Positions 1-64,000 of a stretch of 64,000 nucleotides of DNA are shown here, piece by piece (within the stretch, counting starts at the first letter, position 1; each line of letters opens with the position of its first letter). Source of the DNA: Takakia lepidozioides (lineage: Eukaryota > Plantae > Bryophyta); the NCBI GenBank assembly GCA_030704615.1, contig CM060734.1:17174001-17238000 (forward strand), written 5' to 3'. A program made the position numbers and the translations under genes. The notes beneath the pieces were generated by a model. It had not been told where the DNA came from. It searched no databases and worked only from the letters and a program-made list of their open reading frames with translations.

Positions 1-609
1 CATAACGGTCCCCCCCCTTGATCTCCCAAAGAACCCTCCAACGATTTAGAACCAGCGGAATTCCCTTTGGTAGTTGGCAGTCCGGAACAGCTCCCCACTC
101 TTTGGTCGCTTTCCGGCTCGCTCGCTTACTCACTAGTTTTTGGTCACCGACGGGCTTGCACCGTTCTCGGGGTTACTACTCCCTATATATACTTCTGTAG
201 CTGTCCGCGAGGGTTTCACAAACATCCATGCCATTTTATGGCGAACCACCACGAACACCCTCGACTCCCGGTGATGAGTCGCGGTGAGTCTTGGCCCACT
301 CACCACGGCCCCTATGGACCGTGATGAGTCCCAAGACTCCCCACGATTCCCACCACGAGGTCTCCGCCCCAGGGTGAGTCCTATGCCACCCCCACTAAGT
401 CCCGCTAAGCTACCACCACCCCTTGTGGAGCCACCCCCACCGCAACCCGGTGTGTGGGGCTCCACCTAGTGAGCACCTCCGCCTCCTTGAGTGCTTTGGG
501 CACTCAAGGGTGCTTCAGCCCCCCATACCTATCGCTGCCACTGCCCCCACCACAGGGGCAACCCCTCTTGTGTCCCAACCCCCTGCCCTCAAGGCAAAGG
601 GCCGCGACA
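1..609 (-). repeat. 3' LTR of chromovirus A1 (partial), preceded by a PPT-like tract
   Basis: Matches the LTRs at 8058-8629, 16484-17212, 23659-24377 and 26607-27313. On the minus strand it starts TGTCGCGG directly after GGTAGGGGTGTG. Confidence 0.9.
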
Positions 610-1509
610 CACACCCCTACCAACAGGGAGTCGATGTCCTCATCGGCTTGTACATTTTGTGGAAACAAACATCCAAGTTGTGGCGTCCCACATCAAGGAG
701 TTTGTTTCCGTACCATGGAGTCCCATGACAAAGAACCAAACCCCACACTTGACTCTACTCTCCACTAGCTAGTTCGGCCGACTTCCTCCAAGTCCCGGCC
801 AAGGGTGGAGCCTCTCAAGCTCCTCCCAGTGCACTCTTCTTGGCCTACTTCAAGGCCAAGGAACGATCCTCCCCGAGGATCGAATCGCCTTACTGCAACA
901 ACATTGCTTGCGACCGCTCATGATGCCGCTTTTGGCATCACATTGAGCAAGGGTTCACCTCGAACCCTCTTTGACTAGGAAGATAACCTTGAACCAACCG
1001 CGCGCCCCAATCACTACAATTGGGTCCGCCTTGGAATGCTGGCCTGAGGTACGGGAACACGCCAAAGCCGCCTTCGTCCCGAGGCTACACGATTATAGTA
1101 CGTGAACGGAAGCATGTAGCTTCCGCGTTAGCCCGCACTACAAAGCAACCCCCTCGGTAGCGCAGTTATAGTATGCGCACGCGCCAGGTGCGCACTAGCA
1201 CGTGAACTCCTAAAGAAGGCGCAAGTTTCCTTGCCCCTTTGGATGGAAGTCACCCAATTTTGGCATTGCGCAAACACACGATTAACCCAATTTACCTCTC
1301 CCACTTTTGTAAGCTAGCTTGCATTCTACACACTAGCCAACCACACCATGCAACACCATTCCAAACAAAATAAGACGCACAATATTTGGAACCCATTTCC
1401 TTTATAACAAATTTTTGTACAATACAAGTTTTTGCAATCGGATTCCTAAGCTAGCTAAGTCGGGCTAAGCATGCATTTCCTCCCCCACGCTCCAAGGTTG
1501 ATGTCCCCA

Positions 1510-2369
1510 TCAACGCTTCTTCCGTTTTTGAGGTCGCCCTTCGAAAACTGCAACCGCCTCGGATGCGTTTCCCATTTCTAAGGCACGCACCCAAGATGCC
1601 TCCACATGATGATAGCCCTTCCATTTGACGAGATACTCCGTTTCTCGGTTCTTGAACCTCCTCGACTTAAGTATTGCCTCCACCTCATACTGAGGTTCAT
1701 TTTCATGATCCAACAGCACAGGTGGCGGACGCAACACTTGATGCCGATTCGGACACGCTTCATCTTTGAAGTAAGGCTTCAAAAGGGAGACGTGGAATAC
1801 TGGATGCACCTTGTTGTTTGCCGGCAGCTCCAATTCATACACATCCTCATTCATAACCTTCCGGATGCGAAATGGTCCCGCATATGGAGGTATGAACTTT
1901 GGACTCACTTCCGGAGGTAGTCGGAAATTCTTGATGTTCAACCAGACCTCCGTGCCTGCCTCAAACTTCACTTCCCTCCGCTTCCGATTCGCCTGCCTTT
2001 CATACCGTTTCCTAGCTTTGGCAATGTTGTACTTTGCGAGCTTCAACAAACGCTCGCGTTCTTCCAGTACCGCCGCTACTGCCTGGGCGGCCCAACTTGT
2101 CGGCACCAGAGGTGCTTTTCCATAGACCAATACGAAAGGGGAAACTCCCGTTGCGGAGTGTTCTGTGTTATTATAACAGAACTCTGCCGCGTCTAAGTGT
2201 TCCACCCAATCTGTTTGGTCTGCCGACACGTAATTCCGCAAGATCTGCTTCACTACGGAATTCACTCTTTCCGTTTGGCCGTCGGTCGTAGGTAGGAAGG
2301 CGGTGCTCATCTTCAGCCTCGTCCCCATCTTCTTCCAAAGTGCCCTCCAAAATTTACTCGTAAACTTTG
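1510..2369 (-). pseudogene. Integrase C-terminal half plus chromodomain of chromovirus A1
   Basis: TDGQTERVN, GPF/VHPVFHVSLLKP (GPY/F region) and YEVEAILKSR...YLVKWKGY...SW (chromodomain with aromatic residues). Confidence 0.93.
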
Positions 2370-2526
2370 GGAGATCAAGGGGGGGACCGTTATGTCCCGG
2401 TGAGCACCCGAAGCTCCAAGTTGGCCCAGCGGCCAGGTTGGGAGTTAGGCGCGCGCATCAAGCGAGTAACTATGACTTGAGGGGGGAGCTTACCGAAGTG
2501 AGGTGCGTGACACTTGGTATCAGAGC
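2370..2526 (+). promoter_or_regulatory. LTR terminal fragment (ends ...GTGACA at 2512) followed by a primer-binding site for initiator Met tRNA (2515-2526)
   Basis: TGGTATCAGAGC starts 2 nt after the LTR end. 2370-2394 is the reverse complement of window positions ~1-26. Confidence 0.9.
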
Positions 2527-2567: not shown

Positions 2568-5500
2568 ATGGGGTCGGGCAAGCCAAAGCGAAAGCAGAAC
2601 GGCCCAAAAGATGATGATCCTGATGAGCCCGATGGGGGCGACGTGTCACCGAGGCGGCCGTTTGAGGAAGCGATGCATGTTTCCGAAAACGAGGCCGCTT
2701 AAGAGCGGGAGGAATCTGAGGAGTCGGAGCATGAGGAATCCTTGAGAGCTCCGACCGACCAACAGATGCCTCCCATGCCGGCAGCCTTTTGGGAAGGGTT
2801 ATTGGCGCAATTTGGCGGGACGTTGAAAGACGTGTTGAAGGCAGCTAATACCACTTCCACTAAGGTAAAGTTTAAGGTGAAGCCAAAGGAACCCGGCACC
2901 TTCGAGGGTGTCCGAAATCGGAAGGCACTCAACACCTGGCTCTTGGAGCTGGAGCAGTACTTCCGGGCGGCCAAGTTGAGTGACGAGGATCGGGTGGAAG
3001 TGGCTCCCACCTATTTGAGGGGCTATGCTCAACAATGGTGGCAGAAACACCTTCACGACCGAGGTCCAAGCCCGGAAACCTTGAACTGGAGTGGGTTCAA
3101 GGAATTGATGAAGAGGCAGTTTGTGCCCCTCAACGCGTCCTGGCTCGCCCGGGACAAGATGAGGAATTTGAAGCAAACATATGACATTTGGGGATATGTC
3201 CAGGCTTTCAATGTGTTGTTGCTCGAAGTCGCGGACATGGCAGAACCAGAAATGGTCTTCAACTTTGTAGCGGGACTGGCCCCATGGGCCAAGCGGAAGT
3301 TGGAGGAGAAGCCACCTAAGACTTTGAACGAGGCAATTGAGAGGGCTGAATGTTTCTCGGACGTCCCTAAGGGTGAAAGACAAGGCCGTACGGAGCTGAA
3401 CCACAAGAAGACCCGGCGGGAAGGTGACTCCTTCCGACCGGAAAAGAAGTGGGATAGGCCACGCGGCGATAATGGCACGTGGAAATCGAAGGGAGGGCCT
3501 TCACAAGTCAAGGCGACACCCGGTGCTTCAAAAGAAAAAGCGGGTGGAGCGGCTTATGGCGGACAGAAGGCGACCTTTGATAGAGTGTGTTTCAATTGCG
3601 GGGAGCCCGGGCACATGGCCAAGAAGTGCACGAAGCCTCGGCAATTGAACATGACTCGGGCGACCACAGAGCTGTCGGAAGATACCATCAGTCGCTTGGT
3701 GGAAGCGGTGGTCGCCAGGACTTGCAAGGTAGGCAAATTTTCTTGTGAGTTGTATCAGGAAACTGGCGCCTTACGTAAAGGGAGTCAGTTATTGTTCGTG
3801 GATGGGATAATATCCGGAACTAACGTGTCGTTGTTGGTGGACACAGGAGCGTCGCACTCCTTCATGACACCGGCAACAACACAAAAGCTGGGACTCCCGA
3901 CAAGTGACGTGGGGGCCTCTATTGAGATGCGTTCTGCCAAAGGAGAACCGCAATTGGCGACAAGGTTGGCGTTTGATGTTCCTCTTCAACTGGGGAGTTG
4001 GGAAGGACGTGAGAACTTCACCATCTGCGAGATCGATGGAGTGGATCTCATTTTGGGGATGACCTTTTTGAGCAAATCCGGAGCGGTCATAGATGGCTGC
4101 AAGAGAGTAGTTACGCTGCCATGTGGGAATGGTGGCGAGGTCTTACGAGTGTCAGAAACGCCCAAACCCGTGGGAAGGCGAATAAACCTCATGTAAGCAA
4201 GGGAGTGGGCCGTGGAGGAGGCACACGAGCCCCAGTTTTTGCTCTATATTAGAGAAGTGAAGGGAGAAGGCGATGGGGAGCCGAGCCCAGATTGGATCAA
4301 GGGGATTTTGGAGAAATACCAGGATGTGATGCCGGAGGATTTACCAAGCGGCTTGCCACCGCGAAGAGGAGTTGACCACAAGATTGAGGTGATACCGGGA
4401 TCGGAACCGCCTGCCAAGGCGCCCTACCGGTTGAGCCACAGAGAGTTGGTCGAGCTGAAGACTCAGCTCAAAGATCTAATGTCAAAGGGGTACATCCGGC
4501 CGAGTAAGTCACCTTACGGAGCCCCGGTGCTATTCGCAGACAAGAAGGATGGGACGTTGCGGATGTGTGTCGATTACAGGGCTTTGAATAAGGTGACTAT
4601 AAAAAACCGGCATCCTTTGCCAAGGATCGACGACCTTTTCGATCGGTTGGCAGGAGCAAAGTATTTCAGCCGGATCGATCTATGCTCCGGCTATCATCAA
4701 ATTCGAGTGGCGGAAAGAGATGAGGAGAAGACCGCGTGCAGGACAAGGTATGGTTCATATGAGTTCTTGGTGATGCCTTTTGGACTCACCAATGCTCCCG
4801 CAACCTTTAGCACGCTGATGAACAGCCTTTTCCAGGAGTGGTTGGATGACTTTTTGATCGTGTACATCGACGACATCTTGGTGTATTCGAAAACAAAGGA
4901 GGAGCACCTGGAGCACCTCAAAAGGGTGTTCCAGAAATTGCGGGAAGGGAAGCTGTATGCCAAAGCTTCAAAGTGCGAATTCGGGGTCACAAAAGTGGAG
5001 TTCCTGGGGCATGTGATTACACAGGATGAGATCAGAATGGATGACAGGAAGGTGAGGGCAATCTTGGACTGGGAGCCTCCGACTTCGGTCCCGGGAGTGC
5101 GATCCTTCCTAGGACTCGCCTCCTACTACCGGAAGTATGTGAGAAATTTTGCCAAGATCGCGGGGCCGCTGTTAGACCTTCTGTGTAAATCCAAAGTCTG
5201 GGCATGGAACACCTTTTGTGGCCAAGCTTTTGCTGAATTGAAGCAGCGGATGGCGGAAGCTCCAGTCTTGAAAATCCCAGAGTTCGATCGTCCGTTCGAG
5301 ATTCATACAGATGCGTCGGACTTCGCGATTGGGGGTGTACTGATGCAAGATGGATGCCCAGTGGCTTACGAAAGTAAGAAACTGAATGAAGTGGAGCGAC
5401 GGTGGCCGAGGCACGAGAAAGAGATGAAGGCGGTGGTGCACTGTCTTGAGCTTTGGCGCCACTATGTTGGTTCCAACCCAGTGAAGGTGTTCACGGACAA

Positions 5501-6250
5501 TGTCACGGTGAAGTATTTTGCCACGCAGCCCAAGTTGTCTCCAAAACAACTTAGGTGGCAAGATACTTTGGCGGTGTTCGACGTGGATATCCAGTACAAA
5601 CCGGGACGGGACAACATGGTGGCCGATGCCTTAAGTAGAAAGCAACAACTTTTGTTGGTGTATAGGGGCGAGACGACGCTCCAAAGGAAGATCCGGAAGG
5701 CTTGCCGGAAGGATGAGCTGGCGAAGTCCGTGATGCAGGACTTGAGGATGGGGGTTAAATCGCAATTCCACTTGCAAAATGGACTGCTCCGGTATAAGCA
5801 AAAGCGTCTCTACGTGCCGAAGGGAGGGATCAGAGATAGCCTCTTGAGATAATGCCATGATAGCCCGCTTGCGGGCCACAGCGGAGCCAAGCGCACTGCG
5901 GCACTCTTGAAGAAAGAGTATTTCTGGCCCAAACTGAGGGAGGAGGCAGAGGAGTATGTCAAGACATGCACCACATGCCAACAAAACCGGAGCGAGTACA
6001 AAAAGCAAGCGGGGCTGTTGCAACCCTTGCCGATTCCAGAGGGGACTTGGGAAAGCGTCTCGATGGATTTCATGACTGCTATGCCGTTGTCAAAAGGATT
6101 CGATGCAATCATGGTGGTGGTGGATAGGTTCAGTAAAATGGGCCATTTCATCCCCACCAAGGAGACGGCAACGGCACAGGAAACAGGGCGACTTTACTTC
6201 GCCCACGTCTTAAAGCATCATGGAGTCCCGAAGGATATTGTCTCGGACCT
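2568..6250 (+). pseudogene. Single-frame gag-pol of chromovirus A1 (gag, CCHC knuckle, protease, RT, RNase H, integrase N-half); in-frame stops at ~2700, ~4194 and ~5850; truncated at ...VPKDIVSD
   Basis: The ORFs at 2514, 2742, 4212 and 5907 share one frame. Motifs: CFNCGEPGHMAKKC, LVDTGAS, YIDD, TDAS, H..GH..C..C, SMDF. Confidence 0.93.
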
Positions 6251-7620
6251 CAATGCAAGTGTCTTCTACATGCCCTCTTACACGTTTTTGAGAAGTATGA
6301 CATCAATCTAAAAGGGTGAACCAATCGTCCCCCTACCAAATGATTTTAAATTGATTTGAAACTTTGCAAGTGTCTTGTACATGCCCTCTTACAAGTCTTT
6401 CACAAGTTTCAAATCAATCTAAAATGGTTAAAAGGGTGAATCAATCATGAACATATCAAATGATTTTGGAGTGCTTTAAAGCTTTGCAAGTGTCTTTCAC
6501 ATACCATTTTAAAGGTACCGGACAAGTATGAGGTTAGTAAAATATGGTTGAAAGGGTGAACCAATTGTTCCCCTATCAAATGATTTTACATTGCTTTGAA
6601 GCTTTGCAAGTGTCAGCCACATGCTCTCCTACAAGTGTCGGACAAGTATGACGTGAATAAATGGTTGAAAGGGTGAACCAATCATTCCGCTATCAAATGA
6701 TTTTATATTGCTTTGGATGTCATCGCTTTGGTAATTCTAGCCCCCCAATGGCCCATTGTAACCCTTGAATTACAATTCAAAATGCAATTCAAGCCCTTAA
6801 AATTGGTACTGCCAGTCCCTTTTGGAGCAATAAAATATCATTTCATCGGGGAAGTTTCCGTTCACCCTTTCATCCAATTTTGAATTGAACTGCATTTTTA
6901 CTAAATAAAATGATTTAGAGGGCATAGGATTGTGGGGCGCAATGAGTGTGGGGCGCAATGATTTCGTTTTTGGCTTGATTTTGTTCTGTGAGTTGAACCC
7001 TCACACCACCACATCATTGCCAAAAAATGTACCAAAGAAAAATGTTTGGAAAAAAACGTTCATCCTTTGCTCTATGCTCACTATTGCAGAACTCTCTATG
7101 AATAGTGCATGAAGTTGAAGATAACTTCACCTTGGAGTGCAAATGAGGGAATAAAATGTGTTTTGGATGCAGACGATGTCTGTTCATGGTGATATTTTGC
7201 ATGCAACTCTTCATGTTGTTATCAAGCATATGGCTTCAGAATGGAATTAAAAACAATTCATGTGTAGGCGAAAGGTTGTTTCTCATTATGAATTTGAATA
7301 ACCAATTCAAACAACTTTGTTGAAGTTCAACTTTGGTCCATATGTGCTTAAGTACGTACAAATCACGTACACAAAGTTGCAAGCGAAGAAATAATCATTT
7401 GCCCCCCGAACGACTCGTTAAACCTTTCAACCAATTTTCAATCATGAATCATTTAATAGGGGAACTATTGGTTCACCCTTAGAACCATTTTAGATTGATC
7501 TCATACTTGTCCGATAACTTAAAGAGGGCATGTACAACACACTCCCAAAGTTTCAAATCAATCTAAAATCATTTGGCAGGTGAACGATTGGTTCACCCAT
7601 TGACCCGGTGTACACTGTCA
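6251..7620. repeat. Degenerate ~120-bp repeat array (AAAGGGTGAACCAAT...TCAAATGATTTT...TTTGCAAGTGT) with inverted copies at ~7440-7600; foreign insert in A1
   Basis: Direct copies near 6310, 6430, 6550 and 6668. Reverse-complement copies (ATTGGTTCACCC) near 7467 and 7588. Confidence 0.65.
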
Positions 7621-8057: not shown

Positions 8058-8629
8058 CCAACAATTTAGAACCAGCGGAATTCCCTTTGGTAGTTGGCAG
8101 TCCGGAACAGCTCCCCACTCTTTGGTCGCTTTTCCGGATCGCTCGCTTACTCACTAGCTTTTGGTCACCAACGGGCTTGCACCGTTCTCGGGGTTACTAT
8201 TCCCTATATATACTTCTGTAGCTGTCCGCGGGGGTTTCACAAACAACCATGCCATTTTATGGCGAACCACCACGAACACCCTCGACTCCCGGTGATGAGT
8301 CGCGGTGAGTCTTGGCCCACTCATCACGGCCCCTATGGACCGTGATGAGTCCCAAGACTCCCCACGACTCCCACCACGAGGTCTCCGCCCCAGGGTGAGT
8401 CATATGCTACCCCCACTAAGTCCCGCTAAGCTACCACCACCCCTTGTGGAGCCACCCCCACCGCAACCCGGTGTGCGGGGCTCCACCTAGTGAGCGCCTC
8501 CGCTCCTTGAGTGCTTTGGGCATTCAAGGGTGCTTCAGCCCCCCATACCTATCGCTGCCACTGCCCCCACAACAGGGGCAGCCCCTCTTGTGTCCCGACC
8601 CCCTGCCCTCAAGGCAAAGGGCCGCGACA
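8058..8629 (-). repeat. 5' LTR remainder of chromovirus A1
   Basis: Colinear with positions ~38-609 and ends GCCGCGACA at 8629. The flank switches abruptly to a different element. Confidence 0.9.
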
Positions 8630-10084
8630 TGTATGGTATGGCGGAGTTGCCTGCCATGGTTGCTCAGACTCCATTGTGGGGCACGAGCAAGGATTTGCAG
8701 CGGGTTGCTAATCGACGGGTACAACAGGCCTGGGTGGAGGCTTTTGTACCATCCGGAGAGGAGGAGAGTGCGGGGATTGTACCAGGACCACCTCAGTTGT
8801 CACCATTGGATACCACACCTTTTGTGTGGCAGTATCCGAATGAAGGCATTTGTCTTCTGGACTTGTTTGGCGGGATCAGCACCGGATTGGTTGTTGTGTT
8901 ACAGGCAGGTATACGAGTTCGGCGTTACCTGTATGTGGAGAGGGATGAGACTGCACGACGCGTTTCACTTCGCCATGTTGCTCAATTGGTGCAGCAGTAC
9001 CGTGAGTTGTTGCCGGTGTCTGCAGTTCGTGGATATCAGCAGGCCTTGCCATTAGACATTTTGTTGCTGGGGGCGCAGGACTTGGAGCGGGTTGGCTCCA
9101 TTGATCTGGTAGTGGCAAGTTGGCCCTGCCAAGGGCATTCATCAGCCAGGCATGACAATGGATTGCGAGACTCGAGGTCGGGTCTGTTTTGGGAGATGGT
9201 GCGGGTTTTGCGCCACTTGCAGCTTTATCAAGCTGTATCTCCAGCATACATCTTAGAGAATGTGCCACTGATGGGCGATTCTCAGGCCAGGGTGATGGCC
9301 AGTGTGCATCAAGTCCGGTCATGGCTTGGGGCTAGATGCAGCTACAGTGGAGTCACGGGCTCATCGTCCACGGCTATGGTGGACTAACTTGATGCCACCC
9401 GCACTGCTCAAGTGTGCATTTGATGGGGTGTAGCGGCCAGCACACCTCACAGTGGATAGCATTTTGGACACAAGGAGGCAGTCTCAGCGTGTGAGACACG
9501 ATGACCGTTTGCCTTTGGCAGTGGTCAACAAGGTGGGTCAACCACGAGCAACATTACCTACACTGCTCAGCTTCCCAGGATCGCATGCTTTCCGGGATAG
9601 TGGACCTGGCCTCCTGTGGGATGCTCAGTTGCAGCAGTTAGTGGAGCCTAATGCTGACGAGCGTGAGCGAGCAATGGGTTTTACCACTGGTACCACGGCG
9701 GTGCCCTCTCTTTCTGAGGCATCACGTCGTCAGGTGTTGGGGCAAGCAATGGATCTCAATTGCTTGACCTGGATTATCAGCTTGGCTATGGCTGAGCAAC
9801 GCAAAGTGCGGAGTACACTTCCCTCGATGGTTTCTCTGCCTACCGAGATGGTACAGGCAGTGAGTGAGGGCGAGCAAGAGAGGACCACGGGGTGCAGGCA
9901 TCCATGGCACACATGGGAGGTGCTTGAGGTTCAGAGGGAGTTGGAAGCCAGGGCGGCGGTGATGGATGAGGTTGGGGATTTTTCTCGGGTTGAGGAAGTC
10001 CTCGAGGATGAGATGATGGGGCAGGATGAGGCCTTGTCATTGACTGAGCAAGCAGGGAGTACTACTCAAGAGGTTGCAACATAG
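8630..10084 (+). pseudogene. C5 cytosine DNA methyltransferase domain within retrotransposon pol
   Basis: Motif I LLDLFGGI, motif II VERD, motif IV DLVVASWPCQG, RSGLFWEMVRVL, motif VI ILENV, motif VIII AHRPRLWWTN (after a frameshift near 9335), ERERAMGF, motif X RRQVLGQAM. Confidence 0.9.
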
Positions 10085-13000
10085 CAACCACTGGACGCGT
10101 CCTCTACCTCTAAGCCCACTGGACTTAAGGTTGCAGTTACGGAGGACAATTGGGAGCCTGACATTGGACCCATTGTCACCGGAGGATAGAGACGACGTAT
10201 ACAGCGGTTCCTGAGGGCTTACAGGAATTGCTTTACCTTCAGTTTGAAGGACTTGGGAGCACTGAAGGGTCAAGAGATTTGTATTGAGTTGGCCACTGAC
10301 ACGCTAATCTTTCGGAGACCCTATAGATACAGTGACATGAGAGGTCTTTGATTCAGATGAGGACTCAAGATCTCTGGGAGGCTGGTTTGGTGGAGCTCTC
10401 TGGTGGAGAGTATGCTTCAGCCACAGTGATGTCAGCCAAGAAGGATGTCTATGGCAATTGGATGGAGAGACGTATGTGCGGTGATTACCGGCCTGTAAAT
10501 CGTCAGACCAAGTCCAATAAGTATGCCATGCCAACACCAGAGGAGATCTTTGATGCCATCGGGCATGCTAAGGTCTTTAGCACTTTGGATTTACGATCCG
10601 GATATCACCAATTGTCGATCGAGGAGGCGGACAAGCAGAAGACGACATTCTGGGGGATCAATGAGCACGACAAGGATTGCCTATATCAGTGGCGGTTCTT
10701 ACCATTTGGGCTTAAGAATGCTCCTGCAGAGTTTCAGAGAGTCATGGATAGGATTCTAGCAGGGGTGGACTTTGCTCGGTGCTACATAGATGACATCATC
10801 ATCTTTAGTGCTACGGTGGAGAAGCATGAGAGACATCTTTAGGTGGTATTGGAGCGCTTGAGAGCGCACGGATTGAAGTTGCATCCGGGGAAGTGCAAGT
10901 TTTTCCACAACCAGATTGAGTATCTGGGTCACATGATATATCCTGGAGGATTGGGGGTACAGCAGACTAAGATAGAGGCCATTGCACAAATTCCACGCCC
11001 CACGGATGTGAGCCGAGTTCGAGCTTTCATGGGGTTGGCAAACTATTATAGACGGTTTGTCAAGGGATTTAGTGCCATTGCAAAGGCTCTAACCAAGCTG
11101 ACCAAGGTGGATCAGGAGTGGCAGTAGGAAGATGAGCAGGAACAAGCTTTTCAAGAGCTCAAGGCGAGGTTGACCTCGGCGCCTATCCTGAGACGACCTA
11201 TCAGGGGGCGTCCCTTTCAGCAGCATGCGGATTGGAGCATGTTGGGGCTTGGAGCGGTGTTCACACAGGTGGATGATGAGGGAAGAGAGTTCGTAGTGGC
11301 TTATGCTAGCCGCTCGAACAACGCTGCAGAGGCTAAGTACAACTCATATGAGGGAGAGTGCTTAGCTGCAGTGTGGGCCGTGACACACTTCAGGTGCTAT
11401 CTATACGACAATCTTTTCACCCTTGTCACGGATCACCAGCCACTCAAGTGGTTGATGGAGTCAGACAAGCTTACGGGGAAGCTTGCACGGTGGGCACTCA
11501 TACTCCAGGAGTATGACTTTCAGGTTGTGCATTGACCGGGTTTGGTCAATCGGGATGCGGATGGATTGAGTCGCAATCCATGCACGAGCCAGCAGGATGA
11601 CACTGGAGTTCGGTGGCATGGTGAGACGGACAAGGAGATGGTGCCGGGATGGCATGCATCTGTCTTTTTGTGTATCTTGGCATCGGGAGGTCAGGTTGGA
11701 CCTACAACAGGGATGACTGTAGACGGAGTGTCTGAGGACCCTGAGGCTAGTGATGAGTCAGGTGGTACTCGAGATATACATGAGGATTCGGCTGTGTTGG
11801 ACTACCTCCGTACTGGAGACACGGCAGCCACTGTGACTGCCAAGGAGAGGGATCGGATCCTGCAACGAGCCAAGAGGTTCAAGTGGGAGGGGATACACCT
11901 GCTCCGAGTATGGGAGGATGGTCAGGTGAGGATTGTGCCTCACCCCACACAGCGTGCACGGTTAGTGTGGCATGCCCATGAGGAGTTGGGGCATTTTGGA
12001 GTGCGACGCACTCATAGTTTACTACAGGGGCAATATTGGTGGCGTGGTATGCATACAGAGGTGCAACAGTTCGTGGCTAGGTGCATGGTGTGTGACAGTG
12101 TGCGTGCTTCATTCAACGCCCCTACACCATAGTTGCATCTTTTACCAATCATGGGATTGGGCTACAGGTGGAGTCTTGACTTCGCAGGACCGTTGCCACT
12201 GACTATGCGCCACCACAGATATGTGTTGGTGATGGTGGAGCACTTCTCCAAGTGGATTGAGTTGGTTCCATTGCCTGACAAGACTAGTAAGGGGGCTGCG
12301 TATGCATTCTTGGATCGTGTGCTTAGCTGATTTGGTGCTCCAGCTGAGGTACTCACGGACCAAGGAAGAGAGTTCTTGGGGGAGTTTCAGGCTTTGTGTG
12401 ATAAAGCCTTGATAGACCACCGCACCACTTCTTGGGATCATCCTGAGGCCGATGGCTTGGCAGAGAGAGTTGTTCAGACGGTGAAGAGGGGTTTGCGCAA
12501 GTATGGCTTGCAGAAGGGACACCTAGGAGATTGGGATCTTCAGGTGCATTGGTTAGCCATGGGCTACAGGTTCAGCAATCAAGCATCACTTGCCTCCTTC
12601 TCACCGTATTTCCTTCTCTTTAGCCGAGAGCCGGATTTGCTTGCAGCCATTCGTAGGGACACTGCTCAAGTCCTTAACCTTGACGATCCGGACGTGTGGG
12701 TACGTGCATGTGGTCAGCGTGCAGAGTTGTTCAAGAAAGTCATGCCCATGGCTTTTGAGAACCTTGCCATTGCACAACACTGTGATGAGGTATGCCACTA
12801 TACGTGGTGGAGGATATCGTCTTGGGGTTCGGAGGTTTAGCCCTAGTGACTATGTTTATTTGCAGCAGACTGCTCCTACGACCCTGGATGTCACTGCAGG
12901 GCGTGTTATTCTGAGGGTTCAAGAGGTGTTGCCCTCAGGAGTCCTGATCTTGGAGGGTCGGGATGGCATGACTTGGAAAGACCATGTGCGTAATTGTGCA

Positions 13001-13213
13001 TCATGTCACCTTCCCAATGTCGATGGCAGAGTTGACCCAAACTTGGCAGTGGTACCTGCAGGTTTGAGGTGCATGTTCTGTGGGTCTGCCAAAGGGGTAG
13101 CCACCATGCTGGTGTGTGATCGATGCTCAAGAGGTTGGCATATGGGATGCTTGACACCACCTCTTGAGAGGGTTCCTGATGGAGATTGGTTATGTCCACA
13201 TTGCTTGGGATAG
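10085..13213 (+). pseudogene. RT-RNase H-integrase-PHD finger of element B1, with several nonsense codons and frameshifts
   Basis: RMCGDYR, PFGLKNAP, YIDD, RNase H DWS/TDHQPL, integrase HEELGH..C..C, DFAG, TDQG, AERVVQ. C-terminal CMFC...CDRC....H..C...W.CPHC is a C4HC3 PHD finger. Confidence 0.92.
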
Positions 13214-13473
13214 TGGCAGTGGACATGACTGGAGGCAGCTAACAAGACATGGGAGGCCAAGCTCATAGGAGTCAATACACGAGATCCCAGGCTCAAGTTC
13301 ACAGGTTGCAAGATGGCGACTAACGATGGGGCAACTCTTGCACCCGGCCTCTTGATCTATCAAGTTTGAGTGTAGTAGGGACAGTGGTGGAGGACGTAGT
13401 GAGGCTATGGTCACTATCACATCTTGTGGCTACCTGGACTTAGAGGGACCTAAGCACCAGCTAGGGGGGCGAT

Positions 13474-14168
13474 TGTGTGGACTAGTGACTGCCATAGTGG
13501 GCAGCATAGTGGTAGCCTAGTGACTGACTAGTTGTAGCCTAGTGGTTGGACTAGTGGTGGACTAGTGGTATACTAGTGTGTGGCGTGCACATGTGTTGTG
13601 TGGTTTTAGACAACGATGTAGTTGTGTAGCGATATGTATGCGCACGACAGCTGTAAAGTTATTTTACCACTAGTGTGAAACTAGCTAGGAAATAGCTAGC
13701 TTTTACATATTGACATTTGGGATTGGCCCAAGTGTCAATCCAGGGATCAAGGCAGATTTAGGCCCTGGAGTGGTTATCTTCACGGCAAGCGCGGGAGGCT
13801 CATCTTTCTCGAGTTGAGCCTCACCGCGCCTAGCTATGGCGCCGTAGTGTGGATTCCCCATGGCGTGGGGTGCACTTGGCTTGACTTGTATTTGAGTGAT
13901 GAGTTTATATATGCATGAGTTTAAGCTTCAGCTTTGTGAGCTCGCATGAGCTTGTGCTTGTATTCTTCTTCTTTATCATTGTGTGGACTAGTGACTGCCA
14001 TAGTGGGCAGCATAGTGGCAGCCAAGTGACTGACTAGTTGTAGCCTAGTGGTTGGACTAGTGGCTGGACTAGTGGTGGACTAGTGGTATACTAGTGTGTG
14101 GCGTGCACATGTGTTGTGTGGTTTTGGACAGCGATGTAGTTGTGTAGCGATATGTATGCGCACGACAT
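13474..14168 (+). repeat. ~180-bp direct duplication (13474-13649 and ~13979-14168) of an ACTAGTG-rich LTR start, flanking a 327-bp filler
   Basis: Both copies run TGTGTGGACTAGTGACTGCC...CGCACGACA. Confidence 0.85.
13652..13978 (+). repeat. Fragment of repeat/LTR family C, near-identical to 56171-56497
   Basis: AAGTTATTTTACCACTAGTGTGAAAC...TTCTTCTTTATCA is present at both loci. Confidence 0.88.
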
Positions 14169-16483: not shown

Positions 16484-17212
16484 TGTCGCGCACCTCACTT
16501 CGATAAGCTCCCCTTCAAGTCATAGTTACTCGCTTTGATGCGCGCGCCTGACTCCCAACCTGGCCGCCCGGGCCAACTTGGAGCTTCGGCTGCTCACCGG
16601 GACATAACGGTCCCCCTTCGCTTCCCACTAAACCCTCCACCTATTTGGGACTAGGAGAATTTCCTTTGGTAGATGGCAGTCCGGAACAGCTCCCCACTCT
16701 TTGGTCGCTTTCCGGTTCGCTCGTTTACTCACTAGTTTTTGGTCACCAACGGGCTTGCACCGTTCTCGGGGTCACTACTCCCCTTATATATACTTCTGTA
16801 GCTGTCCGCGGGGGTTTCACAACCAGCCATGCCATTTTATGGCGAACCACCAGGAAAACCCTCGACTCCCGGTGATGAGTCGCGGTGAGTCTTGGCCCAC
16901 TCACTACGGCCCCTATGGACCGTGATGAGTCCCAAGACTCCCCACGACTCCCACCACGAGGTCTCCGCCCCCATGGTGAGTCCTATGCCACCCCCACTAA
17001 GTCCCGCTAAGCTACCACCACCCCTTGTGGAGCCACCCCCACCGCCACCCGGTGTGCGGGGCTCCACCTAGTGAGCGCCTCCGCCTCCTTGGGTGCCTTG
17101 GGCACTCAAGGGTGCTTCAGCCCCCCATACCTATCGCTGCCGCTACCCCCACCACAGGGGCAACCTCTCATGTGTCCCGACCCCCTTGCCCTCAAGGCAA
17201 AGGGCCGCGACA
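16484..17212 (-). repeat. Complete 3' LTR (~729 bp) of A2
   Basis: 7-bp terminal inverted repeat TGTCGCG/CGCGACA, with homology to the other LTR copies. Confidence 0.92.
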
Positions 17213-18082
17213 CACACCCCTACCATTTTGTAGAAACGAACATCCAAGTTGTGGCGTCCCACATCAAGGAGTTTGTTTCCGTACCATGGTGTCCCATGGC
17301 AAAGAACCAAACCCCACACTTGACTCTACTCTCCACTAGCTAGTTTGGCCGACTTCCTCCAAGTCCCGGCCAAGGGTGGAGCCTCTCCAGCTCCTCCCAG
17401 TGCACTCTTCTTGGCCTACTTCAAGGCCAAGGAATGATCCTCCCCGAGGATCGAATCGCCTTACTGCAACAACATGCTTGCGATCGCTCATGATGCCGCT
17501 TTTGGCATCACCTTGAGCAAGGGTTCACCTGGAACCCTCTTTGACTAGGAAGATAACCTTGAACCAACCGTGCGCCCCAATCTCTACAATTGGGTCCGCC
17601 TTGGAATGCTGGCCTGAGGTACGGGAACACGCCGAAGCCGCACTACGACTTCGTCCCGAGGCTACACGATTATAGTACGTGAACGGAAGCACGTAGCTTC
17701 CGCGTTAGCCCGCACTACAAGGCAACCCCCTCGGTAGCGCAGTTATAGTACGCGCACGCGCCAGGTGCGCACTAGCACGTGAACTCCAAAGAAGGCGCAA
17801 GTTTCCTTGCCCCTTGGATGGGAGTCACCCGATTTCGGCACTGCGCAAACACACGATTAACCCAATTTACCTCTCCCGCTTTTGTAAGCTAGCATGCCTT
17901 CTACACACTAGCCAACCATACCATGCATCGCCATTCCAAACAAAAATAGGAAGCACAACATTTGAAACATTTCATTTAAAGCAAATTTTGTACAATACAA
18001 GTTTTTGCAATTGGATTCCTGAGCTAGCTAAGCCGGGGTAAGCATGCATTTCCTCCCCCACGCTCCAAGGTTGATGTCCCCA

Positions 18083-19451
18083 TCAACGCTTCTTCCGCTT
18101 TTGAGGTCGCCCTTCGAAAGCTGCAACCGCCTCGGATGCGTTTCCCATTTCTGAGGCACGCACCCAAGATGCCTCCACACGATGATAGCCCTTCCATTTG
18201 ACGAGATACTCCGTTTCTCGGTTCCTGAACCTCCTCGATTTAAGTATTGCCTCCACCTCGTACTGAGGTTCATTTTCATGATCCAACAGCATAGGTGGTG
18301 GACGCAACACTTGATGCCGATTCGGACGCACTTCATCTTTGAAGTAAGGCTTCAAAAGGGATACATGGAATACTGGGTGCACCTTACTGTTTGCCGGCAG
18401 CTCCAATTTATACACATCCTCATTCATAACCTTCCGAATGCGAAAGAGTCCCGCATACGGAGGTACGAACTTCGGACTCACTTCCGGAGGTAGTCGGAAA
18501 TTCTTGATGTTCAACCAGACCTCTGTGCCTGCCTCAAACTTCACTTCCCTCCGCTTCCAATTCGCCTGCCTTTCATACCGTTTCCTAGCTTTGGCAATAT
18601 TGTACTTGCGAGCTTCAACAAACGCTCGCGTTCTTCCAGTACCGCCGCTACTGCCGGTTCCTCAACGTCCTGGGCGGCCCAACTTGTCGGCACCAGAGGT
18701 GCTTTTCCATAGACCAATACGAAAGGGAAAACTCCCGTTGCGGAGTGTTCTGTGTTATTATAACAGAACTCTGCCGCGTCTAAGTGTTCCACCCAGTCTG
18801 TTTGGTTTGCCGACACGTAATTCCGCAAGATCTGCTTCACTACGGAATTCACCCTTTCTGTTTGGCAGTCGGTCGTAGGTCGGAAGGCGGTGCTCATCTT
18901 CAGCCTCGTCCCCATCTTCTTCCAAAGTGCCCTCCAAAATTTACTCGTAAACTTTGGATCGCGGTCCGAGACAATATCCTTCGGGACTCCATGATGTTTT
19001 AAGACGTGGGCGAAGTAAAGTCGCCCTGTCTCCTGCGCCGTTGCCGTCTCCTTGGTGGGGATGAAATGGCCCATTTTACTGAACCTATCCACCACCACCA
19101 TGATTGCATCGAATCCTTTTGACAGCGGCATAGCAGTCATGAAATCCATCGAGACGCTTTCCCAAGTCCCCTCTGGAATTGGCAAGGGTTGTAACAGCCC
19201 CACTTGCTTTTTGTACTCGCTCCGGTTTTGTTGGCATGTGGTGCATGTCTTGACATACTCCTCTGCCTCCTCCCTCAGTTTGGGCCAGAAATACTCTTTC
19301 TTCAAGAGTGACGCAGTGCGCTTGGCTCCGCCGTGGCCCGCAAGCGGGCTATCATGGCATTTTCTCAAGAGGCTATCTCTGATCCCTCCCTTCGGCATGT
19401 AGAGACGTTTTTGCTTATACCGGAGCAGTCCATTTTGCAAGTGGAACTGCG
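18083..19451 (-). pseudogene. Integrase plus chromodomain of A2 (one frameshift near 18600)
   Basis: HDSPLAGH..CTTC, SMDF, SDRDPKF, TERVN, and chromodomain YLVKWKGY. Confidence 0.92.
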
Positions 19452-20238
19452 CTATCAACCAGTTTGGGCAAGAGAGGTAAATTCATGCCCTGCAAACATT
19501 TGTATTTCATATTTTTGAAGAGGATGGTTTGCGATCCCAAACGTGACAACTTCATTCACCAGGCCACTATGAGTTTCAACGAGGTCGATACTCTATTGCA
19601 GCGGGATACAACACATGGGTAGCATCAACTATGCAATGTGGTATGTGGTTGACCATGATTTGAAATGTGTAATTCACATCAATTCGTCGGCGGTGCAATG
19701 ATATGGCCTCCAACTATACGGAGTGAGCTCTGAGTGACAACTTTTAAAAGCACATTTGTCATTGCACCATTCGAAGTCTACATGTCTTGCTGTCGTTATG
19801 CACTACAATCATCTTTTGAAGATGATCCTAACTCTCATTGTTATTTGAGGAGGGAGGAAGGTCTTCCCGTGGCAGCCTCTATGGCGCACACTTTGTGAGG
19901 ATATTTTCTCGTCCTCGTAATTGTAAAAGTGAAACAAGCATTTGTAATTGCACAATGTTGGATGTTACAATTGTAGGCCTCATGGTAGTCTTGATTCTAT
20001 TTAGGCAAGATTCCCTGCATTAATCCCACGGTCATAGGACCATCCTCGGTTATAGGCGGCGCATGTTAATGCTGACGTGGCATATGACGGACAGTGCCAC
20101 GTCATCATTTGCCGCCACATCAGCATGCTGACATGATGCTCACGCCACGTCAGCGTGGGTGCAGGCTCACGCCACGTCACTCCTGCGTGAGCGTACGCTC
20201 GTGCGCTCACGCGCAACGCTCACGCCATTGCGTCGTTG
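19452..20238 (+). mobile_element. Foreign insert in A2: SWIM-finger 3' fragment of the MULE family (~19460-19620), then GCCACGTCA-rich repeats (~20070-20200)
   Basis: PCKHLYFIF...CDPKRDNFIHQATMSFNEVDTLLQR aligns by eye with the ORFs at 38227 and 60987. Confidence 0.75.
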
Positions 20239-23200
20239 CCTCAATTTGGGCCAGAAATACTCTTTCTTCAAGAGTGCCACGGTGCGCTTGGCTCCGCCGT
20301 GGCCTGCAAGCGGACCATCATGGCATTATCTTAAGAGACTATCTCTGATCCCTCCCTTCGGCATGTAGAGACGCTTTTGCTTGTACCGGAGCAGTCCATT
20401 TTGCAAGTGAATCTGCGATTTAACCCCCATCCTCAAGTCCCGCATCACGGACTTCGCCATCTCATCCTTCCGGTAAGCCTTTCGGATCTTCCTTGCGTCG
20501 TCTCGCCCCTGTACACCATCATGAGCTGCTGCTTTCTACTTAAAGCATCGGCCACCACATTGTCCCATCCCGGTTTGTACTGGATATCCACGTCGAACAG
20601 TGCCAAAGTATTTTGCCACCTAATTTGTTTTGGGGACAACTTAGGCTGCGTGGCAAAATACTTCACCGTGACATTGTCCGTGAACACCTTCACCGGGTTG
20701 GAACCAATATAGTGGCGCCAAAGCTCAAGGCAATGCACCACCGCCTTCATTTCTTTCTCGTGCGTAGGCCACCGTCGCTCCACTTCATTTAGTTTCTTAC
20801 TTTCGTAAGCCACTGGACGTCCATCCTGCATGAGTACACCCCCAATTGCGAAGTCCGACGCATCTGTATGGATCTCAAATGGATGGTCGAACTCCGAAAT
20901 TTTGAGGACTGGAGCTTCCGCCATCCGCTGCTTCAACTCGGCAAAAGCTTGGCCACAAAAGGTGTTCCATACCCAGACTTTGGATTTACACAGGAGGTCT
21001 GACAGCGGCCCCACAATCTTGGCAAAATTTCTCACATACTTCCGGTAATAGGAGGCGAGTCCTAGGAAGGATCACACTCCCGGGACCGAAGTCGGAGGCT
21101 CCCAGTCCAAAATCGCCCTCACCTTTCTGTCATCCATTTTGATCCCATCCTGTGTAATCACATGCCCCATGAATTCCACTTTTGTGACCTCGAATTCGCA
21201 CTTTGAAGCTTTGGCATACAGATCCCCTTCCCGCAATTTCTGGAACACCCTTTTTAGGTGCTCTAGGTGCTCTTCCTTTGTTTTCGAGTACACCAAGATG
21301 TCGTCGATGTACACGATCACAAAGTCATCCAACCACTCCTGGAAAAGGCTGTTCATTAGCATGCTAAGGGTCGCGGGTGCGTTGGTGAGCCCAAAAGGCA
21401 TCACCAAGAACTCATATGAACCATACCTTGTCCTGCACGAGGTCTTCTCCTCGTCTCCTTCCGCCACTCGAATTTGATGGTAGCCGGAGCGCAAATCGAT
21501 CCGGCTGAAATACTTCACTCCTGTCAACCGATCAAAGAGGTCGTCGATCCTTGGCAAAGGGTACCGGTTTTTGATAGTCACCTTATTTAGAGCCCTGTAA
21601 TCGACACACCCGCAGCATCCCATCCTTCTTGTCTGCGAATAGCACCGGGGCTTCGTAAGGTGACTTACTCGGCCGGATGTACCCCTTTGACATTAGATCC
21701 TTGAGCTGAGTCTTCAGCTCGACCAACTCTCTGTGGCTCAACCGGTAGGGTGCCTTGGTAGGCGGCTCCGATCCCGGTATCACCTCAATCTTGTGGTCAA
21801 CTCCTCTTCGTGGTGGCAAGCCGCTTGGTAAATCCTCCGGCATCACATCTTGGTATTTCTCCAAAATTCCCTTGATCCAATCTGGGCTCGGTTCCCTATC
21901 GCCTTCTCCCTTCACTTGTCTCACGTAAAGCAAAAACTGGGGCTCGTGTAGCTCCTCCACGGCCCACTCATTTGCTGACAACAGGTTTATTCGCCATCCC
22001 ACTGGGTTGGGCGTTTCCGACACTCTTAAAACTTCGCCACCATTCCCACACGGTAGCGTGACTATTCTCTTGCGGCCATCTATGACCGCTCCGGATTTGC
22101 TCAAAAAGGTCATTCCCAAAATGAGATCCACTCCATTGATCTCGCAAATGGTGAAGTTCTCACGTCCCTCCCAACTACCGAGCTGAAGAGGAACATCGAA
22201 CGCCAACCTCGTCGCCAATTGTGGTTCTCCTTTGGCCGAACGCACCTCAATAGAGGCCCCCACATCACTTGTTGGGAGTCCCAACTTCTGTGCCGTTGCC
22301 GGTGTCATGAAGGAGTACGACGCTCCTGTGTCCACCAACAACGACACGTTAGTTCCGGAGATTATCCCACTCACAAACATTAACTGACTCCCTTTACGCA
22401 AGGCGTCAGTTTCCTGATACAACTCATAAGAGTAGTTGCCTACCTTGCAAGTCTTGGCGACCACCGCCTCCACCAAGCGGCTGATGGAAGCTTCAGACAA
22501 CTCCGTGGTTGCCCGAGTCATGTTCAATTGTCTGGGATTCGTACACTTTTTGGCCATGTGCCCGGGCTCCCCACAATTGAAGCACACTCCATCGAAGGTT
22601 GCCTTTTGTCCGCCATAAGACGTCGCACCTGATTTTCCTTTCGGAGCACCGGGTGTCGTCTTGGTGTGTGAAGGCCCTCCCTTCGATTTCCACGTGCCAT
22701 TGTCGCCGCGTGGCCTATCCCACTTCTTTTCCGGTCGAACGGAGTCACCCTCCCACCGGGTCTTCTTGTGGTTCAGCTCCGTACGGCCTTGTCTTTCGCC
22801 CCTAGGGACATCCGAGAAACATTCAGCCCTCTCAATTGCCTCGTTCAAAGTCTTAGGTGGCTTCTCCTCCAACTTCCGTCTGGCCCATGGGGCCAGTCCC
22901 GCCACAAAGTTGAAGACCATTTCTGGTTCTACCATGTCCGCGACTTCGAGCAATAGCACATTGAAAGCCTGAACATATCCCCGAATGTCATCCGTTTGCT
23001 TCAGATTCCTCATTTTGTCCTGGGCGAGCCAGGACGCGTTGAGGGGCACAAACTGTCTCTTCATCAGTTCCTTGAACCCACTCCAGTTCAAGGTTTCCGG
23101 GTTTGGACCTCGGTCATGAAGGCGTTTCTGCCACCATTGTTGAGCATAGCCCCTCAAATAAGTGGGAGCCACTTCCACCCGATCCTCGTCACTCAACTTG

Positions 23201-23603
23201 GCTGCCCGGAAGTACTGCTATAGCTCCAAGAGCCAGGTGTTGAGTGCCTTCCGATTTCAGACGCCCTCAAAGGTGTCGGGTTCCTTAGGCTTCACCTTAA
23301 ACTTTGTCTTAGTGGAAGTGGCATTAGCCACCTTCAACACGTCTTTCAACGTCCCGCCAAACTGCGCCAACAACCCTTCCCAAAAGGCTGCTGGCATGGG
23401 AGGCATTGTTGGTCTGTCGGAGCTCTCTGGAATTCCTCGGGCTCTGACTCCTCAGATTCCTCCAGTTCTTGAGCGGCCTTGTTTTCAAAAGCATGCATCG
23501 CTTCCTCAAACGGCCGCTTTGGTGACACGTCGCCCCCATCGGGCTTACCAGGATCATCATGTTTTGGGCCGTTCCGCTTTCGCTTTGGCTTGCCCGGCCC
23601 CAT
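20239..23603 (-). pseudogene. gag-PR-RT-RNase H of A2, frameshifted
   Basis: Highly similar to 2568-5940. Motifs CFNCGEPGH, LVDTGAS, YIDD, TDAS. Confidence 0.92.
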
Positions 23604-23644
23604 GATGAGGCCGATCCCAAGGACGATCGCATACTGAACTCTAA

Positions 23645-24377
23645 GCTCTGATACCAAGTGTCGCGCACCTCACTTCGGTAAGCTCCCCTTCAAGTCATAG
23701 TTACTCGCTTTGATGCGCGCGCCTAACTTCCAACCTGGCCGCCAGGCCAACTCGGAGCTTCGGCTGCTCACCGGGATATAACGGTCCCCCTTTCTTCCCC
23801 CAACAGACCCTCCACCAATTTGGGCCTAGTGGAAATTCCCTTTGGTAGATGGCAGTCCGGAATAGCTCCCCACTCCTTGGTCACTTTCCGGCTCGCTCGC
23901 TTACTCACTAGTTTTTGGACACCAACGGGCTTGCACCGTTCTCGGGGTTACTACTCCCTATATATACTTCTGTGACTGTCCGCAGAGGTTCCATAAACAA
24001 CACCATCCTTTTATGGCGAACCACCACGAAGACCCTCGAATCCCGGTGATGAGTCGCGGTGAGTCTTGGCCCACCCACCACGGCCCCATTGGACCGTGAT
24101 GAGTCCCAAGACTCCCCACGACTCCCACCACAAGGTCTCTGCCCCATGGTGAGTCCTATGCCACCCCCACTAAGTCCCGCTAAGCTACCACCACCCCTCG
24201 TGGAACCACCCCCACCGCAACCCGGTGTGCGGGGCTCCACCTATCCTCCGCCTCCTTGAGTGCTTTTGGCACTCAAGGGTGCTTCAGCCCCCGCATCTAT
24301 TGTTGCCACCGCCCCCACCACAAGGGCAGCCCCTCTCGTGTCCCGACCCCCTGCCCTCAAGACAAAGGGCCGCGACA
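23645..24377 (-). repeat. 5' LTR of A2 (23659-24377) and Met PBS (23645-23656)
   Basis: GCTCTGATACCA on + is TGGTATCAGAGC on -, adjacent to the LTR end. Confidence 0.92.
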
Positions 24378-63900: not shown

Positions 63901-64000
63901 CAAAGAAGATATTACCGTCGACGTCGGCGGGAAGGCATGTAACCGATTTAATTGCGAACTTGCTGTAGTCCAGCCCGCCCAGCTCCGACCGGTGTCCCTC
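60987..64000 (-). pseudogene. GCM-like DNA-binding domain, MULE DDE transposase and SWIM zinc finger; intron at 62404-62489; frameshifted
   Basis: MDRKHDGHPW...CAGALRC....C...CAHC...C...IHVGSHCH (GCM-like); WVMFD, FMADNAQA, CGFH, TTNMAESVH (D, D, CxxH, E); CNCTDF...PCKH (SWIM). Confidence 0.85.

Follow-up and report, generated by a model that had tools for sequence, protein, structure and literature searches.

In the genome of Takakia lepidozioides (Bryophyta; GenBank assembly GCA_030704615.1, contig CM060734.1), a stretch of 64,000 nucleotides (positions 17,174,001 to 17,238,000 of the forward strand, hereafter the window) contains at 8630–14167 a retroelement with a C5 cytosine methyltransferase domain. 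We consider it rather probable, taking all parts of the claim together, that this element is a dead, 5′-truncated copy of a highly repeated Ty3/gypsy family in which a DNMT3-like DNA methyltransferase (DNMT) belongs to the first open reading frame (ORF1), the stop codon behind it would be read through, the enzyme would be packed in bulk, the cDNA would be CG-methylated, and the integrase would cut at an internal site. The element is a land-plant variant of KnitGypsy-Dnmt3, reported from Klebsormidium in 2018, and new here are a likely leaky stop and permuted ends. Only tentatively can this be extended to an old green-plant Ty3/gypsy lineage, rich in mosses and liverworts, in which internal palindrome cleavage on end-joined DNA, instead of processing the ends of a linear cDNA, a DNMT3 made at the Gag level via a leaky stop and PHD-guided insertion of pre-methylated DNA might together act as a private de novo CG methylation system.

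Domain structure and decay of the window copy

The DNMT region begins at 8630 because the truncated long terminal repeat (LTR) of an unrelated chromovirus ends there (8058–8629, minus strand; 97% and 93% identity to the LTR copies at 38–609 and 16637–17212), and gag and protease are missing from this copy. Before 8626, other copies of the DNMT family continue with different sequence; the chromovirus family of the LTR has a tRNA-Met-type primer site and a chromodomain. All parts of the element lie on the plus strand. A remnant of the linker between protease (PR) and DNMT (8630–8844), which aligns with the corresponding linker of Marchantia, Calypogeia and Sphagnum proteins, is followed by the DNMT domain (8845–9799), for which the Pfam profile PF00145 gave a match at 8494–9384 (E 7.5e-11, above the curated cut-off). 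Motifs I, IV, VI, VIII, IX and X were found as FGG (8866–8874), PCQ (9124–9132), ENV (9256–9264), HRPR (9362–9373), ERAMGF (9665–9682) and GQAMD (9740–9754), and these positions (8866–9754) confirm the unpermuted order proposed in a preliminary description of this DNA. The domain is broken by a frameshift near 9330, between motifs VI and VIII, and by a stop at 9431.

The C-terminal tail of ORF1 (gag-PR-DNMT) occupies 9800–10081, in agreement with the predicted proteins of relatives, which end 78–100 residues past motif X, and with an intact distant relative, L082, whose ORF1 ends at the matching stop. At 10082–10090 a TAG that is kept across subfamilies, followed by CAA CCA (consensus CARYYA), forms the predicted read-through site between ORF1 and ORF2. 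The second frame starts with the pre-RT region and the reverse transcriptase (RT; 10085–10983, YIDD at 10783, PF00078), which is interrupted by a stop at 10187, a frameshift near 10338 before the RT core and a stop at 10840, and continues with RNase H (RH; 11131–11514, PF17917 and PF17919), an integrase (INT; 11944–12892, PF17921 and PF00665) with an HHCC zinc finger and a D-D(35)E core (D 12178, D 12358, E 12463), and a PHD finger at the integrase C-terminus (13070–13204, PF00628), which replaces a chromodomain. Downstream stops stand at 10840, 11125, 11533, 12130 and 12328 and a frameshift near 12785, the last three of these breaks lying in the integrase. The Pfam order in the window is PF00145, RT, RNase H, integrase and PHD finger, and the order PR-RT-RH-INT with a D-D(35)E integrase, which marks Ty3/gypsy elements, was found.

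As previously noted, the same frame runs past the TAG at 10082 into the stretch EDNWEPD...RRPYRYS. The conclusion drawn from it, a DNMT fused in frame ahead of RT in pol, is not supported: a conserved stop parts gag-PR-DNMT from RT-RH-INT-PHD, and the frame is also broken near 9330, at 9431, at 10187 and near 10338. That the DNMT is part of the polyprotein and not an adjacent insertion holds insofar as the domain is integral to the element; as a Gag-level protein it would be joined to RT only if the stop is read through. L082, one intact but distant relative, shows the whole plan, with the expected order gag-PR-DNMT-RT-RH-INT-PHD interrupted by the stop between DNMT and RT.

Two further pieces of the family were detected in the window, both on the plus strand. 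A diverged second fragment (~70%; 24378–25596) comprises the C-terminal half of the DNMT, TAG CAA TCA at 25179 and the pre-RT region and is also cut by a chromovirus LTR. A third copy begins at 56171 with a 5′ end of repeat A (TG start) and a predicted self-priming site (56171–56513; the 16 nt after A are complementary to 56317–56332 within A), and its gag start (59907–60089) matches the N-terminus of Marchantia P0172 in 51 of 61 residues before it is truncated. The left flank at 56171 differs from the right flank at 14168, and the third copy is therefore a separate insertion; it was rejected as the lost 5′ end of the copy at 8630. Its 5′ leader (56498–59906) measures ~3.4 kb, compared with 1.1–1.2 kb in the Sphagnum-type loci introduced below and in L082, and includes a GC-rich tandem array at 58053–58972.

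Relatives of the methyltransferase and selection

The closest relatives of the DNMT (66–76% identity, N-terminal half) are annotated in Marchantia polymorpha, Calypogeia fissa and Sphagnum, where the order is gag-PR-DNMT. Among all fetched DNMT proteins, 38 show PR-DNMT and others DNMT-RT, several algal-type relatives (P0060, P0214) read PR-DNMT-RT in one ORF, and in a further group, to which Scenedesmus belongs, the domain follows RNase H and precedes the integrase (P0016, P0044, P0052 and kin). This last is a sister group, in which P0058 adds a Tudor-like and P0088 a G-patch domain; in P0023 and P0095 the DNMT is paired with a Dam domain. Phylogenetic analysis placed the window DNMT in an 11-row clade with bryophyte sequences (SH-aLRT, the Shimodaira–Hasegawa-like approximate likelihood ratio test, 100), and the window RT with Calypogeia and Marchantia inside a 24-row clade including Coleochaete (99), most rows of which are ORF2-only proteins and which leaves the chromovirus of the window outside. 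These trees (83 of 130 DNMT rows and 74 of 151 RT rows after dereplication) were made by a quick method with midpoint rooting and no cellular DNMT outgroup, show neither donor nor order of events, and name Closterium, Coleochaete and Scenedesmus as the only algae; among the matches to the family no protein stood under the name of K. nitens.

For the intact relative P0165, DNMT3A and 3B gave the best sequence matches (E 6e-12; a DRM-type chain gave 1e-8 and bacterial enzymes 4e-4), and its predicted fold (pLDDT, the predicted local distance difference test, 93.9) also had DNMT3A/B as top matches, with a template modelling (TM) score of 0.83 to DNMT3A (target-normalized). This DNMT3-like fold and a shared A-coding-B-A-B repeat plan support the suspected kinship to charophyte elements. 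PWWP and ADD, features of cellular DNMT3, were not found in L082 ORF1, for which Pfam gives only protease and PF00145.

Further evidence came from 80 Sphagnum-type metagenome loci, which were fetched by PR/DNMT patterns and are linked to the family by cluster; several of them represent the same insertion, so that counts overstate independence. Against these loci the DNMT showed a non-synonymous divergence (dN) of 0.17–0.25 at a saturated synonymous divergence (dS) of at least 1.6, close to RT (dN 0.14–0.18) and integrase, and the catalytic C, E and R motifs are kept across DNMT subfamilies. The proposed dN/dS comparison thus points to purifying selection on the DNMT much as on RT. That the DNMT follows the protease in many relatives, that no termini of its own flank it and that the DNMT tree roughly matches the RT tree likewise argue for an integral domain. 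Whether RT copies occur without a DNMT was tested only weakly: the single locus fetched by RT patterns carries it (1 of 1), and in run X1, with 68,550 contigs on a 5.8-kb stretch, summed depth was similar over DNMT and RT (X1 is possibly the window's own sample, and summed contig depth is no copy number). Viral contigs gave one distant non-member (L001) and no match for ORF2 or P0060.

L082 shares 69% identity in RT and 44–59% in DNMT with the family. It is a eukaryote-type retroelement filed in a cyanobacterial genome assembly, and its ORF2 cluster of 226 members is mostly metagenomic; we infer that it is plant or algal DNA.

Proposed role of the enzyme and of the PHD finger

In the proposed mechanism the DNMT would methylate CG sites of the element's new cDNA before insertion, and from sequence features we lean slightly towards methylation of the element's own DNA at CG. 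Across codon positions 3-1, the window copy has 0.32 (0.22–0.43) and the second copy 0.25 of the expected CpG, as opposed to 0.73 and 0.80 for the window's chromoviruses, with CHG at 0.92 in the window copy; this comparison is one family versus one. Such depletion fits repeated CG methylation in the history of the family, and targeting by the host could do the same. Several observations weigh against methylation of its own DNA: CpG in the host exon is equally low (0.28), L082 shows 0.65, and the raw ratio of observed to expected CpG is lower for other LTR pieces of the Sphagnum-type loci. In addition, the K. nitens DNMT did not methylate yeast DNA, a result called inconclusive (de Mendoza et al. 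2018, PMC5890265).

The small depletion in L082 and the lack of visible activity of the K. nitens enzyme on yeast DNA (PMC5890265) would also suit a DNMT that is active on another target, either host chromatin near the insertion or RNA, or that acts as a binding module or decoy, and bulk production with Gag could equally bring the enzyme to host DNA. We regard this as possible yet less probable than methylation of the element's DNA, as the catalytic motifs are kept across subfamilies, the depletion in this family is specific to CpG, and the related SymbioDIRS DNMT3 enzymes are described as methylating CG de novo (PMC5890265).

The nearest solved chains to the PHD finger are those of CHD4, PHF12, KDM5A, KDM5B, ATXR5 and PHF21A. 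Most of these fingers read unmethylated H3K4. A steering of integration to nucleosomes without H3K4 methylation would be predicted for the element, a proposal for and against which we see an even balance.

Permuted ends and a model for integration

Full-length loci are built as A-coding-B-A-B, with A as the 5′ end, so that the element begins with TG (A) and ends with CA (last B). The window copy is without a left end and keeps B-GC-A-B at 13473–14167. Directly before B lies a polypurine-tract-like run (13463–13472; 86% identity across 50 nt with the equivalent position of Sphagnum-type loci, also present in L082), followed by the first copy of B (13473–13649, ending in CA), which matches the second B at 173 of 177 aligned bases. 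At the B/A joint a near-palindrome, GACA-GC-TGTA (13646–13655), is the predicted internal integrase site; it is perfect (GACAGCTGTC) in L032, L053 and L082, and CA-GC-TG was found at this joint in three families. The 3′ copy of A (13652–13978, TG start and CA end, 320 of 327 bases identical to the A at 56171) and the second copy of B (13979–14167, ending in CA) complete the right end, after which in relatives a 4-bp target duplication follows. Of 11 Sphagnum-type loci in which both ends could be mapped, 10 have an exact duplication and the eleventh retains 3 of 4 bases. TG...CA ends, a duplication within the 4–6 bp of Ty3/gypsy elements and a polypurine tract are therefore all present; two identical LTRs at both ends were not found, the plan being A-coding-B-GC-A-B or A-coding-B.

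The segment after the 5′ A can pair with a segment inside A over 11 nt in the best Sphagnum-type copies, 16 nt in the window and 12 nt in L082. This self-priming pair is fully complementary with different letters in each of the three families, lies ~30 nt past a TATA in two of them and has decayed to 0–10 nt in many dead copies. In Tf1, self-priming involves 11 nt. Judged from the positions of polypurine tract and self-priming site, the replicated LTR would be B-GC-A. The RNA would start inside A and prime itself in the manner of Tf1, and the plus strand would start at the polypurine tract; that the B-GC-A LTR arises in this way we consider very probable, and the A of the window, which has no clear TATA at the expected place, counts against it. 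The A/B joint is precise in L031, L042, L046, L053, L059 and the window, and the exceptions, L011 with ~20 additional bases and L052 and L076 with a primer-site remnant, are as expected of joined cDNA ends. In the subsequent step the cDNA ends (A end and B start) would be joined and the integrase would open the CA-GC-TG palindrome of the left LTR, which would give A-coding-B-GC-A-B; as deduced from the end sequences, this is probably how the permuted ends are formed.

Two findings speak against the model in its simple form. A circle with two palindromes predicts the form A-B-A-coding-B as well, which was seen in none of 24 5′ ends (19 distinct flanks). The simple circle thus fails here, unless one of the two sites is favoured; otherwise RT would make the joint on a linear molecule. 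Moreover, 10 of 19 3′ ends have a single B. L014, with its single B, sits at the same insertion site as L046, which has B-A-B. At least some of the single-B ends are therefore due to collapse, either in the assembly or once the element had inserted, and for this reason single-B copies were dropped as proof of integration from 1-LTR circles. The circular assembly of L082 was likewise dropped as a real circle, since any such repeat plan assembles circular.

The split repeats could alternatively result from DIRS/PAT-style replication or from template jumps of RT on linear DNA, followed by ordinary end processing and no cut of a circle. SymbioDIRS has the same A-coding-B-A-B plan (PMC5890265), the missing A-B-A form among the 24 5′ ends would be accounted for, and the A pair has diverged about as much as the B pair, as would be expected under any model in which both are reset. 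We nevertheless hold this origin to be unlikely: no tyrosine recombinase was detected in L082 (ORFs, Pfam), a 4-bp duplication is present, tract and primer site are placed as a B-GC-A LTR requires, and inserts and primer-site remnants occur at A/B and a fixed palindrome at B/A.

Some loci have rearranged structures. In L052 and L076 the RNase H is cut short and followed by an inverted piece of the element, part of A, the primer-site remnant and B, which could be a product of auto-integration. L066 and L067 are without RT and RNase H and keep gag-PR-DNMT, part of the integrase, the PHD finger and both ends, possibly as a non-autonomous derivative.

A conserved stop codon between ORF1 and ORF2

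Positions 10082–10090 showed no alternative letter at 4% or more in any of four runs (four studies, two organism labels). In X1, positions 10082–10087 were invariant over 1009 contigs with a summed depth of 7.2e5, whereas by depth a different letter stands at 10079 in 58% and at 10092 in 78%. Other copies in X1 replace the stop at 10187 in 99.8%, that at 12130 in 98.8% and that at 12328 in 99.2% of depth (among the matches listed, 40 of 603). The junction is covered by 49 of the 80 Sphagnum-type loci, with TAG in 36, TAA in 12 and a sense codon in one, and CAA follows the stop position in all 49. Both the second window copy (25179) and L082 read TAG CAA TCA, and in L082 this single stop separates an open ORF1 from an open ORF2 of 1047 amino acids. 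Stop and CAA are thus kept in four diverged subfamilies, with CARYYA exact in three (window 10082, window 25179 and L082), and the protein flanking the stop differs among the four. SIRE1 itself uses CARYYA. From its conservation it follows that the TAG at 10082 is not decay, unlike the other breaks, and that the DNMT ends ORF1. The first in-frame ATG lies 85–117 codons past the stop, within conserved RT sequence, in three of four subfamilies.

In tobacco mosaic virus (TMV), CAR-YYA after UAG is sufficient by itself to direct read-through, and TAA is reported as much less leaky (PMC2194720, PMC4132726). The conserved stop and CAA, the distant ATG and the TMV-like context therefore make read-through the best reading. 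The stop would be read through at a low rate, so that the DNMT is packed in bulk with Gag: as predicted from the stop context, UAG-CAR-YYA quite likely yields a minority Gag-PR-DNMT-RT-RH-INT-PHD polyprotein that the protease would split. Read-through likely places protease and DNMT with Gag, on the abundant side. Several points weigh against it, namely that the Sphagnum-type context is mostly CAA CCC, which agrees with the motif at 5 of 6 positions and is followed by an ATG as the third codon, that the less leaky TAA stands in 12 of the 49 loci, and that an in-frame gag-pol stop in Candida Tca2 gave no read-through when tested (PMC2194720, PMC4132726). A 3′ RNA structure after the stop was considered as a general feature and dropped (z −0.9, −1.1, −2.7 and −3.7 versus mononucleotide shuffles).

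ORF2 could also be made without read-through: splicing could remove the stop, with the TAG at or close to a 3′ splice site, or ORF2 could have an internal promoter of its own or be reached by re-initiation. Besides the Tca2 precedent, this would agree with the T-rich run before TAG and the ATG two codons past CAA in Sphagnum-type copies, with a Coleochaete transcript in which ORF2 is a 'complete' ORF that has its own Met, and with GenBank gene models of Marchantia in which predicted introns bridge the stop (models only). However, three of four subfamilies have only 5–7 T among the 30 nt that precede TAG, that ATG is absent in three of four, the conserved part is CAA-YY on the 3′ side, and 12 of 49 loci have TAA and hence no AG, which makes expression without read-through improbable. 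A further idea is that the DNMT came in as a passenger or by an insertion of its own, and that pol is a single ORF in which the TAG at 10082 arose by ordinary decay. One ORF for PR-DNMT-RT does occur in P0060 and P0214, and a single ORF is stated for K. nitens (PMC5890265). The idea is nevertheless highly improbable, because the stop is fixed among the copies of this genome and present in each of the four subfamilies with DNA seen, and because the DNMT is under purifying selection.

Comparison with known elements

KnitGypsy-Dnmt3 of Klebsormidium nitens is described with a DNMT3 in the Pol ORF together with RT and with DIRS-like repeats (de Mendoza et al. 2018, PMC5890265). The present family shares with it the Ty3/gypsy domains, an unpermuted DNMT3-like domain under purifying selection and the DIRS-like A-coding-B-A-B plan; it differs in that the conserved stop puts the DNMT at the end of ORF1, apart from RT and RNase H, and in being a highly repeated family of a land-plant host, and the accessible part of the 2018 paper gives no mechanism for the repeats. 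SymbioDIRS-Dnmt3 and DIRS/PAT elements resemble it in their A-coding-B-A-B repeats and, for the former, as a retroelement carrying DNMT3, but they use a tyrosine recombinase (PMC5890265), whereas the present element encodes a protease and a D-D(35)E integrase and is bounded by TG...CA ends and a 4-bp duplication; in L082 the DIRS combination of a tyrosine recombinase without a DDE integrase was not found. Tf1/sushi and the plant Tcn1 chromoviruses are similar in their predicted self-priming without a tRNA primer and in their occurrence in mosses (Neumann et al. 2019, PMC6317226). Unlike these, the present element has the self-priming complementarity with a PHD finger in place of a chromodomain after the integrase, a DNMT and split ends.

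For the proposed internal cut, the closest precedent is the integrase of foamy virus, which is reported to cleave palindromic junctions of 2-LTR circles (Delelis et al. 2005, PMC1180852). In both systems a DDE integrase would cut closed DNA at a palindromic CA-nn-TG. In foamy virus the two LTRs meet at this palindrome and the outcome is normal LTRs, whereas here it lies inside the LTR and the ends are permuted. For the stop, the precedents are the UAG-CAR-YYA read-through site of TMV and the in-frame stops of SIRE1, murine leukaemia virus (MuLV) and Tca2 (PMC2194720, PMC4132726), which likewise lie between two coding blocks, with the difference that here gag-PR-DNMT is parted from RT and protease and DNMT are on the abundant side. 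EpiLTRs/DAM-LTRs are likewise LTR retrotransposons with a DNA methyltransferase and a chromatin reader, but their DNMT is near DNMT4 and goes with DAM and a chromodomain, and the authors separate them from Gypsy-DNMT3 (bioRxiv 10.64898/2026.05.21.726589); the available text mentions 'streptophytes (Gypsy-DNMT3)' in passing. In the literature outside subscription papers, Repbase and the supplements of the 2026 preprint, no land-plant report of the family, of the stop or of the integration model was found, and the accessible parts of PMC11244446, PMC6317226, 10.1101/363937, PMC10952607 and PMC11982613 contain no land-plant element with a DNMT.

Other features of the window

Chromovirus copies (gag-PR-RT-RH-INT-chromodomain, tRNA-Met-type primer site) lie at 2703–6258 (plus strand), 16484–24378 (minus) and 1–2370 (minus), and chromovirus LTRs cut both DNMT-family fragments, at 8629 and 24378. 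Tandem repeats of ~120 bp with an inverted copy (6254–6775 and 7447–7617) cut off a chromovirus integrase at 6258. A host gene for sphinganine C4-monooxygenase was found at 28760–30780 (plus strand; PF04116 relatives), of which the hydroxylase part at 30217–30780 groups with Sphagnum and two further proteins at 96/95 (41-row tree; one gene of a paralogous family), as is likely for a moss host. A DUF679 (DMP-like) gene (41924–45876, minus) enters with its 3′ part long repetitive frames rich in Gln, Ala and Gly, an unusual extension, and 60987–64000 (minus) holds broken frames with a weak SWIM finger and transposase-like sequence and no other Pfam match, possibly a Mutator-like element (MULE)-like DNA transposon.

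Implications

With this family, DNMT-carrying retrotransposons extend from algae to land plants, including the model Marchantia polymorpha, and the question of the 2018 paper, how the enzyme benefits the element, becomes testable on native Marchantia elements. The fixed stop predicts DNMT at the level of a capsid protein, which would change the methylation possible per particle. For genome annotation, these elements will be overlooked or wrongly cut by LTR finders that require both ends to be identical. Their DNMT ORFs, many of which are annotated as hypothetical host genes, inflate counts of host methyltransferase genes. The anatomy of the ends offers a concrete explanation of DIRS-like repeats and, if true, an LTR retrotransposon would integrate from an internal site, a route normally considered a dead end.

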